From positions 37,997 through 101,996 of the forward strand of contig CAUUFA010000006.1 of assembly GCA_963544395.1 (NCBI GenBank): a stretch of 64,000 nt of DNA, in the 5' to 3' direction. The first letter of the stretch is position 1, and each line of letters begins with the position of its first letter. The notes beneath the pieces are model-generated. The model was not told the origin of the DNA, ran no database searches, and saw only the letters and a program-made list of their open reading frames with translations. This DNA comes from an uncultured Bacilli bacterium. GTDB taxonomy: Bacteria > Bacillota_I > Bacilli_A > RFN20 > CAG-288. A program made the translations under genes and the position numbers. Positions 27,790 to 29,812 of this stretch are shown here, piece by piece.

Positions 27790-29613
27790 ATGGGCAGAAT
27801 TAGAAAGCTTTTTAAATCGATATTATTAGGCTTAGCATTAGGTGCTAGTGCTTTTGGTCTTGCCTCTTGTTCGTCTACGGAAAAGAAAGCCACAAGTTAT
27901 GACTTTACTGTTGTTAGCTGTACGTATAACAGCGAAGAAAACACAACCAAAGTTATCTGGTATTCAAATTTAGTTAACGATTCAATATTTGATATGAAAG
28001 AAGAATCTTTCAAGTTCGACTTATACGAAAACGAAACTTTCATTAGAACGACAGACTACGTGAATTACACAATATCTGTTAAGCATGGAAAAACAGATTC
28101 AGGAAGGCGCAATTTTACAGCGGCAGGAAAAGTAACTGACGTCAAGATCAATACTTGGACTGCCAAGTTCGCTAATCTTTGGGATTCTTATATGCCGTGG
28201 TTCATCGCCGTTATAGTTGCTTCGCCTTTATTAGCAATCGTCTACATAATCATTATGATTATAAACGATCTAGAGTTCGATGATTTGATTGAATTTATGG
28301 AAGATCATTTGTGGTTTATCCCTATGCTAGCTATTCCATTTATTCCTTATCTAATAAGTTCTATATCTTCAGGAGTGTGGAGCTGGGTTACGCCATTGAT
28401 AATTGCTGGAGGCCTTCTTGCCGCGATAGTTATCATCTTAATTGCTCATTTAATTAAATATTTTGTTGATTTTGGAATTGGTGGAAATGAAGGAATGGCA
28501 AAAGTAAAAGTAAAAAAACATTATGACTCAAAAGGCGTTCCTTTCTTAGAAATTGAAGGCTACAAAAAAAGATATTATATAAAAGATTTATTAGACGATA
28601 GGGAAACGCTTTTATGCTTTTCAAAGAAAGATTTAAAAGACTATTGCGTTAAGAACGAATGGTATGAAGCCGATTCATTACATTCAAAAGAAAAATTAGT
28701 TATTTTGCTAATGGATAAAAGTGCTGAAAAAGGCGACGTTCCCGAAGAACCGGAAACAACAAGCGAAAAGAAAAAAACTACGAAAGTTAAGAAGTATTCT
28801 AAAACTAGGTTTGATGATATTGCGGGATTAGAAGATGCGAAGAAGGCGTTTAAAGAAAAAGTTATTATGCCTTTCTTGCATCCTGAAATATATGAAAAAT
28901 TTGGTAAAAAAGCTGGTGGCGGTATATTGCTATATGGCCTGCCTGGTACAGGCAAAACAATGTTTGCAGAAGCTGCAGCTAATGAAATAGATGCTCTTTT
29001 CATTCCAATCAAATGTTCTGATGTCAAATCAAAATGGTATGGCGAGTCCGAAAAGAAAGTTAAAGACATTTTTGCTAAAGCAAAGAAAGCTGAAAAAGCT
29101 ATTATCTTCTTTGATGAATTTGAGGCTATCGGCGCAAAAAGAACAGACAGCGAAAACGGTAATAATGATCTTGTGCCACAGATTTTGGCTGAGATGCAGG
29201 GTGTTGGTTCCTCTTCGAACAAGACGGTTATCATTGTAATTGCGGCTACAAATAAACCTTGGGCGATTGATTCGGCTTTTATGCGTCCTGGTAGATTTGA
29301 TGAAAAGATTTATATTCCTTTGCCTGACTTTGAAGCAAGAAAAAAACTATTTGAATTGCAACTAAGCAAATTGCCTATTGCTGAAGATTTAGATTTTGAT
29401 TATCTAGCAAAGATTACCGATGGATTTAATGGTGCAGACATTAAAGAAGTGTGCGAAAAGCTTAAAATGTCCGCGATAAATGATTCTCTAGAAAAAGGAG
29501 AAGAACAAACTATCGGCATGGATGATGTTAAAAGAATTGAAGGAACTATAAAATCGTCTGTTTCACAAGAAGATATTGATCGCTTAAACGAATTTGAAAA
29601 TGGAGGATATTAA
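27790..29613 (+). CDS. Membrane-anchored classic-clade AAA+ ATPase (lipoprotein ectodomain, 3 TM helices, SAP/HeH-like motif, Cdc48/FtsH-like AAA module)
   Basis: It has the lipobox FGLASC and three TM helices. The AAA module has Walker A GLPGTGKT (28936-28959), Walker B IIFFDEFE (29101-29124) and the SRH motif ATNKPWAIDSAFMRPGRFDEKIYIPLPD. The ATG is at 27790. Confidence 0.85.
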   Translation: MGRIRKLFKSILLGLALGASAFGLASCSSTEKKATSYDFTVVSCTYNSEENTTKVIWYSNLVNDSIFDMKEESFKFDLYENETFIRTTDYVNYTISVKHGKTDSGRRNFTAAGKVTDVKINTWTAKFANLWDSYMPWFIAVIVASPLLAIVYIIIMIINDLEFDDLIEFMEDHLWFIPMLAIPFIPYLISSISSGVWSWVTPLIIAGGLLAAIVIILIAHLIKYFVDFGIGGNEGMAKVKVKKHYDSKGVPFLEIEGYKKRYYIKDLLDDRETLLCFSKKDLKDYCVKNEWYEADSLHSKEKLVILLMDKSAEKGDVPEEPETTSEKKKTTKVKKYSKTRFDDIAGLEDAKKAFKEKVIMPFLHPEIYEKFGKKAGGGILLYGLPGTGKTMFAEAAANEIDALFIPIKCSDVKSKWYGESEKKVKDIFAKAKKAEKAIIFFDEFEAIGAKRTDSENGNNDLVPQILAEMQGVGSSSNKTVIIVIAATNKPWAIDSAFMRPGRFDEKIYIPLPDFEARKKLFELQLSKLPIAEDLDFDYLAKITDGFNGADIKEVCEKLKMSAINDSLEKGEEQTIGMDDVKRIEGTIKSSVSQEDIDRLNEFENGGY

Positions 29614-29614
29614 A

Positions 29615-29812
29615 ATGTTTGAATATAAGGTTTTGACTATTGATATCAATCCTGGTTTTAATAAACCAAAAATTGATGATAAAGGCATTGAAAGAACCAT
29701 CAATAAACTTGGTGAAGAAGGCTGGGAACTGGTCAATGTTGTTCCAAACGCCGGTGGATATGGACACCTTCAATCCCATACGCTTTACTTTAAAAGAGCA
29801 AAAAAAGCTTAA
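29615..29812 (+). CDS. DUF4177-like small protein
   Basis: MFEYKVLTI...LGEEGWELVNVVP...LYFKR matches the DUF4177 pattern. A GGAGGA RBS (29602-29607) lies inside the 3' end of the AAA+ gene. The ATG is 2 nt after the AAA+ stop. Confidence 0.7.
   Translation: MFEYKVLTIDINPGFNKPKIDDKGIERTINKLGEEGWELVNVVPNAGGYGHLQSHTLYFKRAKKA

Follow-up and report, generated by a model that had tools for sequence, protein, structure and literature searches.

A mobile, unannotated family of putative protease-less membrane AAA ATPases from gut Bacillota with an apparently facultative DUF4177 partner

In this paper we analysed a 64,000-nucleotide stretch of contig CAUUFA010000006.1 from an uncultured Bacilli bacterium (assembly GCA_963544395.1), called the window throughout, in which a gene for a 607-residue AAA ATPase is directly followed by a gene for a 65-residue DUF4177 protein. 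The operon is real, and its ATPase belongs to a widespread, mobile and unannotated family, while the two-gene framing holds for a minority of that family only. Our reading as a whole is that of a bicistronic operon from a mobile accessory family whose membrane unfoldase takes part in conflicts with phages or other mobile elements. We put this reading forward tentatively, with slightly more doubt than trust. Coordinates of the features in the window are collected in Table 1; L numbers denote genome loci and P numbers protein cluster representatives of relatives.

The first-pass annotation, made from the letters of the window, had described the larger protein as a lipobox, an ectodomain, three transmembrane (TM) helices and an AAA module lacking a protease. 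The open reading frame (ORF), the Pfam matches, the motifs and AlphaFold2 models all agree with this anatomy. An alternative in-frame TTG start at 27778 was judged less likely. The models were built from an alignment of 84 sequences and reached a predicted local distance difference test score (pLDDT) of 78 over the full length and 84.5 for residues 24-335. They predict the ectodomain as a seven-strand beta-sandwich (residues ~34-127), helices of the TM region at residues 135-158, 182-194 and 200-228, and a cytoplasmic linker with a three-strand sheet (residues 241-263) followed by a helix-turn-helix-like segment (residues 279-316). Pfam assigns AAA (PF00004, residues 379-511, E 4e-37) and AAA_lid_3 (residues 533-573, E 3e-9), no protease or further domain in the 607 residues, and nothing at all in the N-terminal 335. 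We place the ATPase in the cytoplasm because the lipidated N-terminus would lie outside and three TM helices follow it. Natural variants carry five TM helices and never an even number, which agrees with this topology.

Judged by its conservation, the protein appears to combine an active unfoldase, kept under strong constraint, with membrane and surface parts that evolve fast. No variation is seen among the 84 homologues in the Walker A and B motifs, sensor-1, the two arginine fingers of the second region of homology (SRH) or the aromatic pore loop (K389, D442, E443, N488, R499, R502 and W416-Y417-G418), all features of classic-clade AAA proteins. The mean pairwise identity is 83% in the AAA large subdomain (minimum 71%) and 68% in the lid and C-terminus. 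It is 43% in the TM region, 38% in the ectodomain, 37% in the helix-extended-helix (HeH) segment of the linker region and about 20% in the linkers; the N-terminal parts overall range from 18 to 43%.

By its sequence matches the ATPase looks like a classic-clade AAA of the Cdc48-D2/Vps4/PAN/FtsH type that is a member of no curated family. Its best solved relatives are p97/Cdc48 D2 domains. The best NCBIfam scores are those of CDC48 (232 bits), PAN (228), CdvC (225) and FtsH (208), and all AAA scores lie 3-4 fold under the curated cut-offs. The KWYGESE pore loop, EMQGVG, ATNKPW, RPGRFD and the C-terminal SSVSxEDI are common to the window ATPase and Cdc48/p97 D2, VAT, PAN and Vps4/CdvC, but unlike these it is predicted to be membrane-embedded and has no CDC48_N, MIT or coiled-coil N-domain. 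CDC48/VAT proteins (TIGR01243) have two tandem AAA modules and CDC48_N, whereas the window protein has one AAA and scores 232 bits against a cut-off of 803. For CdvC the corresponding values are 225 and 650, and neither MIT nor Vps4_C is matched in the window protein; a few homologues have weak Vps4_C matches.

The likeness to FtsH is greater in overall plan, as FtsH also combines a membrane anchor, an extracytoplasmic domain and a single cytoplasmic classic-clade AAA with the same type of pore loop and SRH (RPGRFD). The first-pass annotation had named a housekeeping FtsH paralogue with a degenerate protease as the profile assignment to look for. The NCBIfam FtsH model does match the AAA part, but at 208 bits against a cut-off of 600 (TIGR01241; for PRK10733 152 against 1008), and the CDC48, PAN and CdvC models outscore it. 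Neither Peptidase_M41 nor FtsH_ext is matched, and the protein ends about 35 residues past AAA_lid_3. The N-terminal topology differs as well, with a lipobox, a beta-sandwich and three TM helices in place of the two TM helices flanking FtsH_ext. The patchy distribution and the clear horizontal transfer of the family also speak against such a paralogue, and the genome of one member, L178, has a true FtsH nearby. We therefore reject this explanation as extremely improbable.

A search of 5.8 billion proteins yielded more than 100 full-length (~600 aa) homologue clusters with 47-90% identity. These come from gut Bacillota-type metagenome-assembled genomes, and the hosts named by the source are Anaeroplasma, Acholeplasmatales, Erysipelotrichaceae and Candidatus Enteromonas. 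Their annotation is merely 'AAA family ATPase' or 'ATP-binding protein'. Our search of the available literature brought up no account of the lipoprotein/3-TM/HeH/AAA architecture, and likewise none of the stand-alone membrane module or of the AAA-DUF4177 link treated below. The earlier suggestion that the architecture was an undescribed one has thus stood up, given also the NCBIfam scores far under the cut-offs and the N-terminal 335 residues free of Pfam matches.

An exhaustive HMMER search with residues 1-335 returned 125 cluster representatives, about half of which are proteins of ~205-245 residues that end a few residues past the third TM helix. In P0162 the same membrane module is joined by an FtsK_gamma winged helix (E 1.6e-19), in P0135 by Rho_N and a zinc ribbon and in P0129 by two Rho_N copies. 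The lipoprotein/3-TM part appears from these combinations to be an autonomous membrane module. Two of the stand-alone forms could be placed in long contigs, where the next gene belongs to a LytTR two-component system in one and is RqcH-like in the other. Judging by these two, we rejected the idea that the short proteins are halves of split genes with a separate ATPase. The stand-alone lipoproteins of ~220 residues form a sizeable unannotated family of their own (P0122-P0203, alignment A4; L169-L172), which conserves N-x-[ST]-I-Y, W..Y..W.TY and an acidic loop.

These observations bear on the idea that the ectodomain senses the outside. In this explanation, which overlaps with the reading we favour, the ectodomain would detect a phage or surface signal and switch on an unfoldase acting together with DUF4177 in defence or signalling. 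A folded domain outside and an ATPase inside would suit such a role, as would the fast evolution of the ectodomain and the island and defence-like contexts described below. Searching PDB and BFVD with the N-terminal model, Foldseek returned only generic Ig/FnIII-like beta-sandwiches with weak E-values (TRAP-beta, GH3 FnIII, DUF1425 and uncharacterised phage proteins). None of the PDB matches reached E<=0.001, a single BFVD match did (E 8.5e-4), and no functional lead emerged. The ectodomain is thus a generic beta-sandwich with no informative structural neighbour, and the ectodomain/3-TM module is common in proteins that have no ATPase. Most members moreover have no DUF4177, no effector domain is seen and no known system is detected. 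The outside-sensing role proposed by the first-pass annotation is not supported by these results, and we consider it unlikely.

The same annotation had recognised a SAP/HeH-like segment between the membrane part and the AAA module. In the window protein itself the linker gives no Pfam match to Rho_N or SAP, even at E<=1. The aligned segment of homologues does exceed the Rho_N cut-off of 24.9 bits (27.4 in P0135 and 33.7 in P0170), and the AlphaFold2 shape agrees; the call draws on the homologues and the predicted shape, and not on a profile match of the window's own segment. This raises the question whether the protein is linked to DNA, with the HeH binding DNA at the membrane and the ATPase remodelling a DNA-bound protein during DNA entry, segregation or prophage induction. 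That two nucleic-acid-binding folds occur in the same position, a Rho_N/SAP-type HeH in many members and FtsK_gamma in P0162, would fit. The FtsK_gamma fusion is a single cluster, however, the window HeH is too divergent for Pfam, and the family members P0039, P0044 and P0076 have no HeH at all. The pore loops of the classic clade, moreover, work on polypeptides. This explanation seems quite improbable to us.

The two genes of the window look co-transcribed, because they are spaced by 1 nucleotide (29614), the ribosome-binding site of the second lies within the last ATPase codons, and a terminator-like hairpin starts 85 nucleotides past the DUF4177 stop. This hairpin is likely the end of a bicistronic transcript, which it would frame together with the promoter-like site at 27702-27729, both sites being consensus matches only. 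The first-pass annotation had the GGAGGA site right and its claim of co-expression is strengthened by this arrangement; its spacing of 2 nucleotides has to be corrected to 1.

The small protein is a full-length DUF4177 (PF13783, 44.6 bits against a cut-off of 25, profile positions 1-64 of 65). It is related to the Sp36 family NF053529 without being a member (37.9 bits against 50), and a PDB sequence search gave chance matches only. It represents a rare subtype with the insert INPGFNKPKIDD, of which 11 close relatives were found among the 5.8 billion proteins. In all seven of the metagenomic contigs inspected for the nearest relatives, an ATPase gene of the family ends 1 nucleotide upstream. 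Seen from the ATPase the link is far looser. In our genome scan the full architecture and a readable downstream sequence are found together at about 39 other loci, and only four of these (L004, L005, L006 and L009) have DUF4177 downstream, at a spacing of -20 to +1 nucleotides. The ATPases of these four are 53-66% identical to that of the window; L004 and L005 carry a short DUF4177 type of 50 residues, L006 and L009 the long type. L009 has, in addition, a second DUF4177 gene of the long subtype (224-415), 5.5 kb upstream of its ATPase-DUF4177 pair. In a neighbour-joining tree the DUF4177-positive members lie in one half of the family, in two subclades, with negatives interspersed among them. 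The simplest reading of this pattern is one acquisition of DUF4177 followed by several losses or replacements. Because the link is strict from the side of the small gene and holds in so few loci from the side of the ATPase, DUF4177 appears to be a dedicated but dispensable, that is facultative, partner. The two-gene module proposed by the first-pass annotation therefore stands for the tight pair in the window and on the contigs of the nearest DUF4177 relatives, but not for the family, in which the ATPase alone is the unit that is conserved and moves.

Of the relatives of the DUF4177 protein just one has been characterised, namely sP36 from Methanosarcina mazei, a small protein that forms hexamers and regulates the membrane complex AmtB1/GlnK1 (PMC10714827). 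Nothing connects the window protein to nitrogen regulation. By analogy with sP36, a hexameric DUF4177 cap or adaptor would suit a hexameric ATPase ring. Another DUF4177 protein has been claimed to be bacteriocin-like (PMC11322243). We reject this for the window protein, as it has no leader peptide and no exporter.

The ATPase gene is an accessory and horizontally mobile gene. In the window it lies on a horizontally acquired island, which begins directly after a tRNA cluster and differs clearly from its surroundings in guanine plus cytosine (GC) content (Table 1); the first-pass annotation had placed the operon in an island, and the GC profile and the tRNA-adjacent start agree with it. No integrase or att-type direct repeats bounding the island were found. 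In most family loci the GC content of the ATPase gene agrees with that of the low-GC host genome, while in L015, L016, L017, L021, L022 and L025 it is 10-19 points under that of the flanks. There is no conserved gene neighbourhood across 45 loci, and DNA similarity between the window and its relatives ends at the borders of the gene or of the gene pair. A segment of 1.9-2.3 kb with the ATPase gene as its sole gene recurs at 95-99.5% identity between unrelated flanks in six species-representative genomes (L023, L025, L027, L028 at 5457-7751, L032 and L038). In this L023 group it is framed by the inverted repeats ACTTTTGAAACTAGC ... GCTAGTTTCAAAGT. Because of the near-identity despite unrelated flanks and the bounding repeats, the segment looks like a non-autonomous mobile cassette. 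Such repeats are absent around the window operon, and their motif occurs nowhere in the window. Split copies of the gene with frameshifts or stops were seen at L008 (6001-7809), L039 (1029-2848) and L031 and are likely pseudogenes. The intact version of the L008 locus is L173. Such broken copies fit a dispensable accessory gene.

In L002 (89-5888) and L006 (111-5845) the ATPase gene is part of the late region of a prophage. The order in both is tape measure, minor tail and tail proteins, a phrog_1009 protein, holin and ATPase, with DUF4177 added in L006, where two large serine recombinases lie 1.5 kb beyond (9288-12151). L005 has downstream genes in common with both. This leads to the hypothesis that the protein might be an accessory of phage lysis or egress, which would help to disrupt the membrane or time lysis, and that the window copy might be a prophage remnant. 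The ATPase follows the holin in the slot expected for an endolysin, and no endolysin is called between the two genes in L002 or L006. The window island, for its part, adjoins tRNA genes and has an Xre-type gene in common with the end of the L006 prophage. The stretch between lysis genes and integrase is, however, also the classic position of prophage cargo (morons), and most members are found outside prophages, with none in phage and viral collections. We consider a lysis function very unlikely.

Several neighbours of the ATPase gene are defence-like. A type IIG restriction-modification (RM) system lies beside it in L010. AbiLi-like AAA_21, DUF3990, MazG-like and Schlafen-type helicase genes are its neighbours in L008/L173, a PDC-M26A-like ATPase in L014, a DUF2726 helicase and SLFN_AlbA_2 in L176, and an AAA_21 pair in L178. 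Genes for NERD-domain proteins are directly adjacent in L082, L026 and L175/L177, and these proteins may be a second facultative partner. The NERD genes lie at 2004-2711 in L082, 6045-6752 in L026, 7078-7932 in L175, 6008-6862 in L177 and 14536-15162 in L174; some of the proteins have an N-terminal TM helix and some a Top1-type zinc ribbon. A prophage or defence-like context is seen in about a third of the distinct loci, a share counted without a background control. The best match in PADLOC is to IetA, which belongs to the IetAS toxin-antitoxin/defence pair and likewise is a classic-type AAA in a mobile two-gene module. We reject this match (E 7e-35), and a further one to TRIP13, as generic AAA similarity. 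The IetA match is weaker than that of generic AAA families, the IteA equivalog NF042959 scores 108 bits against 510, the window locus has no IetS subtilisin-like protease (no Peptidase_S8 match), and IetA is not a lipoprotein/TM fusion.

We regard a biological role in conflicts with phages or other mobile elements, rather than in housekeeping, as a possibility that is somewhat more doubtful than not. It is favoured because of the prophage cargo position, the cassette, the islands, the defence-like neighbours and the fast-evolving surface domain. There are several points against it. About half of the loci, L174 among them, lie purely among housekeeping genes, for example metK, hpf and those for tRNA synthetases and sporulation. 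Among 144 neighbours in 36 loci the recurrent families were just Xre-type helix-turn-helix (HTH) proteins (6) and PDC-S01 (3). PADLOC, run on both proteins and their neighbours, detected no system, and Pfam and NCBIfam gave no family above its cut-off for them beyond generic AAA and DUF4177. No family member is present in INPHARED phages, PLSDB plasmids or IMG/VR, the last searched also with a family-specific degenerate pattern; only distant AAA matches were returned. Pfam finds no effector domain in the ATPase. Most family members have no DUF4177, including the two closest, L002 (90%) and L003 (85%), in which the slot after the ATPase is taken by a lipoprotein gene and by an unrelated 181-aa gene, respectively. 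Finally, a mobile gene for protein quality control would show equal conservation of the ATPase. The conflict function, as read from the context, is a plausible proposal. The defence or signalling idea of the first-pass annotation is therefore left with the prophage cargo slots and the RM, AAA_21, Schlafen and NERD neighbours on one side, and with the PADLOC result and the housekeeping loci on the other.

By analogy with FtsH, Cdc48, Vps4 and Msp1, the ATPase would assemble as a hexameric ring beneath the membrane. A polypeptide would then be threaded through the KWYG pore loops at the expense of ATP, and the target would be unfolded, extracted or dismantled at the cytoplasmic face of the membrane. 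As the ATPase has no protease, the product is presumably remodelled and not degraded. The HeH/beta-hairpin region in front of the ring could serve as the N-domain by which a substrate or adaptor is chosen, with nucleic acid as a possible further ligand. The lipoprotein/3-TM module would position the ring and may couple it to something extracellular. DUF4177 could be an optional adaptor, regulator or substrate kept by some lineages. A prophage cargo function, superinfection exclusion or defence are examples of the roles that such a machine might fill.

The best analogy for this mode of working is found in Msp1/ATAD1, which, like Bcs1, is a eukaryotic protease-less membrane AAA protein with a single N-terminal TM helix. 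Msp1/ATAD1 has the TM anchor and the one classic AAA, but not the ectodomain, lipid anchor or HeH of the window protein. The comparison raises the question whether the family is a mobile factor for quality control or stress tolerance instead, whose ring, like Msp1/ATAD1 or the ATPase half of FtsH, would pull out or refold membrane proteins that are damaged or mislocalised, and which has spread horizontally owing to raised stress tolerance and not to phages. The intact and extremely conserved unfoldase machinery, the membrane anchor with a cytoplasmic ring and the many loci among housekeeping genes would all agree with this. There is also a precedent in Enterobacteria, where mobile AAA+/FtsH genes for heat tolerance are known (ClpK/ClpG and the FtsH of the transmissible locus of stress tolerance (tLST) island). 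What it leaves unexplained is the prophage slot after the holin, the repeated RM, AAA_21, Schlafen and NERD neighbours, the fast-evolving surface domain and the HeH domain. We think that a quality-control factor is rather unlikely.

A sharper version of the conflict role would be a single-protein, membrane-spanning device on prophages and cassettes that provides ATP-driven superinfection exclusion. The lipoprotein/3-TM module would set the unfoldase at the place where an incoming phage or mobile element passes through the membrane, the HeH would engage the incoming DNA or a pilot protein, and the ring would pull apart the injection or entry machinery, for example a tape-measure channel. In some lineages a hexameric DUF4177 cap might gate the ring, or a membrane NERD nuclease might accompany it. 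We give this version a low probability. Superinfection-exclusion proteins of the Ltp type are small surface lipoproteins without an ATPase, carried as prophage cargo near the lysis/integration end; their likeness to the window protein is one of position only, with no known similarity in sequence or fold. Protease-less membrane AAA+ ATPases of unknown function have also been described on the potential mobile units of phytoplasmas, and are presented there as derived from FtsH and as having 1-2 TM helices (PMC6981957). These resemble the window ATPase in being protease-less membrane AAA+ proteins on mobile units of an Acholeplasmatales-related lineage, a comparison made by description only, and no phytoplasma locus was among the best 80 genome matches.

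Classic AAA+ unfoldases have a central place in protein quality control, and FtsH, which carries its own protease, is to our knowledge the sole well-understood membrane-bound one in bacteria. The family described here differs from it in being protease-less, predicted to be lipid-anchored and multi-pass, carried as mobile cargo and unusually constrained in its ATPase. If the target belongs to a phage or mobile element, the unfolding of proteins at the membrane would join the known ways of excluding invaders, and the widespread orphan domain DUF4177 would obtain its first genetically linked partner. Should the family be a mobile factor of quality control instead, gut bacteria would have in it their own equivalent of Msp1. 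At present the ATPase family, the rare DUF4177 subtype and the membrane module in its stand-alone form have no annotation, and they could be defined as new families.

Table 1. Features of the operon, the encoded ATPase and the surrounding island (window positions; aa, residues of the ATPase where a range is given).
Feature	Position	Strand	Basis or remark
ATPase gene	ATG 27790 to TAA 29611-29613	+	607-aa ORF
DUF4177 gene	ATG 29615 to 29812	+	65-aa ORF, 1 nt past the ATPase stop
GGAGGA ribosome-binding site of the DUF4177 gene	29602-29607	+	within the last ATPase codons
Promoter-like site TTGAGG-16-TAAAAT	27702-27729	+	~60 nt 5' of the ATPase ATG; consensus match only
Terminator-like hairpin, 12-pair stem then T-rich run	29897-29923	+	consensus match only
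Lipoprotein signal peptide, lipobox LASC, Cys27	27790-27870	+	Cys invariant in 84 homologues
Extracytoplasmic beta-sandwich domain, aa 28-130	27871-28179	+	pLDDT >90
Three TM helices and acidic cytoplasmic loop, aa 131-228	28180-28473	+	AlphaFold2
Cytoplasmic linker, aa 229-337	28474-28800	+	AlphaFold2; sheet, HeH (Rho_N/SAP-like) aa 276-316, disordered Lys-rich stretch
Classic-clade AAA module, lid and C-terminal helix, aa 338-607	28801-29610	+	Pfam, motifs
Walker A GLPGTGKT, aa 383-390	28936-28959	+	read from sequence
Pore loop KWYG, aa 415-418	29032-29043	+	read from sequence
Walker B IIFFDEFE, aa 438-445	29101-29124	+	read from sequence
SRH ATNKPWAIDSAFMRPGRFD, aa 486-504	29245-29301	+	read from sequence
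Five tRNA genes (Val, Tyr, Gln, Lys, Leu)	26748-27263	+	ARAGORN, Rfam
Low-GC island	27264-35900	.	GC profile; 35% against 49% GC in the rest of the window
AbiEi-like gene (233 aa)	29985-30686	+	PADLOC E 2e-5, 22 bits, weak N-terminal match; context only
Xre-type HTH gene (184 aa)	30941-31495	+	28% identity to the HTH protein ending the L006 prophage; context only
Inverted TATTATCT pair, candidate operator	27603 (+), 27675 (-); span 27603-27682	.	upstream of the ATPase gene
Four further TATTATCT copies	29820, 29862, 29925 (+), 29935 (-); span 29820-29942	.	between the operon and the AbiEi-like gene

Genes for the AbiEi-like protein, for Xre-type HTH proteins, for a secreted peptidase-like protein and for a lipoprotein share the island with the operon, along with decayed fragments. 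The AbiEii nucleotidyltransferase required as partner in an AbiE system is absent beside the AbiEi-like gene. At 30637-31495 two overlapping ORFs of 147 and 184 residues share a repeated N-terminal segment, and the second ends in the Xre-type HTH. They are followed at 31579-34379 by a gene for a 773-aa secreted protein. Its matches, one to a cysteine peptidase of the Mycoplasma type (29.9 bits against 45) and one to DUF7689, are weak and sub-threshold. A lipoprotein gene of 159-180 residues overlaps the end of this gene; the first-pass annotation had seen a putative effector/immunity pair here. The right end of the island (34400-35900) looks decayed, with short ORF fragments on the minus strand, no integrase and a TetR-like gene broken into two frames at 35386-35873.

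The 8-mer TATTATCT occurs seven times in the window against 1.9 expected, with all copies within 27603-29942 and six of the seven in the two intergenic regions that flank the operon. For these two AT-rich stretches we estimate about 0.1 copies by chance. The cluster includes the palindrome TATTATCTaaAGATAATA. Neither TATTATCT nor another upstream operator is conserved around the homologues, and the cluster is specific to the window island. From the placement of its copies we infer that TATTATCT might be the operator of an island-encoded regulator that co-regulates the operon and the AbiEi-like gene.

Two further observations concern relatives of the ATPase. P0048 (905 aa) has a DUF4238 domain as a C-terminal extension of the ATPase (E 2.5e-27), in the slot that is taken by DUF4177 or other small genes elsewhere. 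More distant, soluble relatives of the ATPase carry conserved downstream partners of their own, namely a Hsp70-like protein of ~820 residues (L056, L064), a protein of ~600 residues in Planctomycetota (L069, L071, L073, L075, L076, L078, L081), a 198-aa protein after a double-length ATPase (L046, L060, L068) and a protein of ~318 residues (L062, L065). These look like separate uncharacterised two-gene modules.

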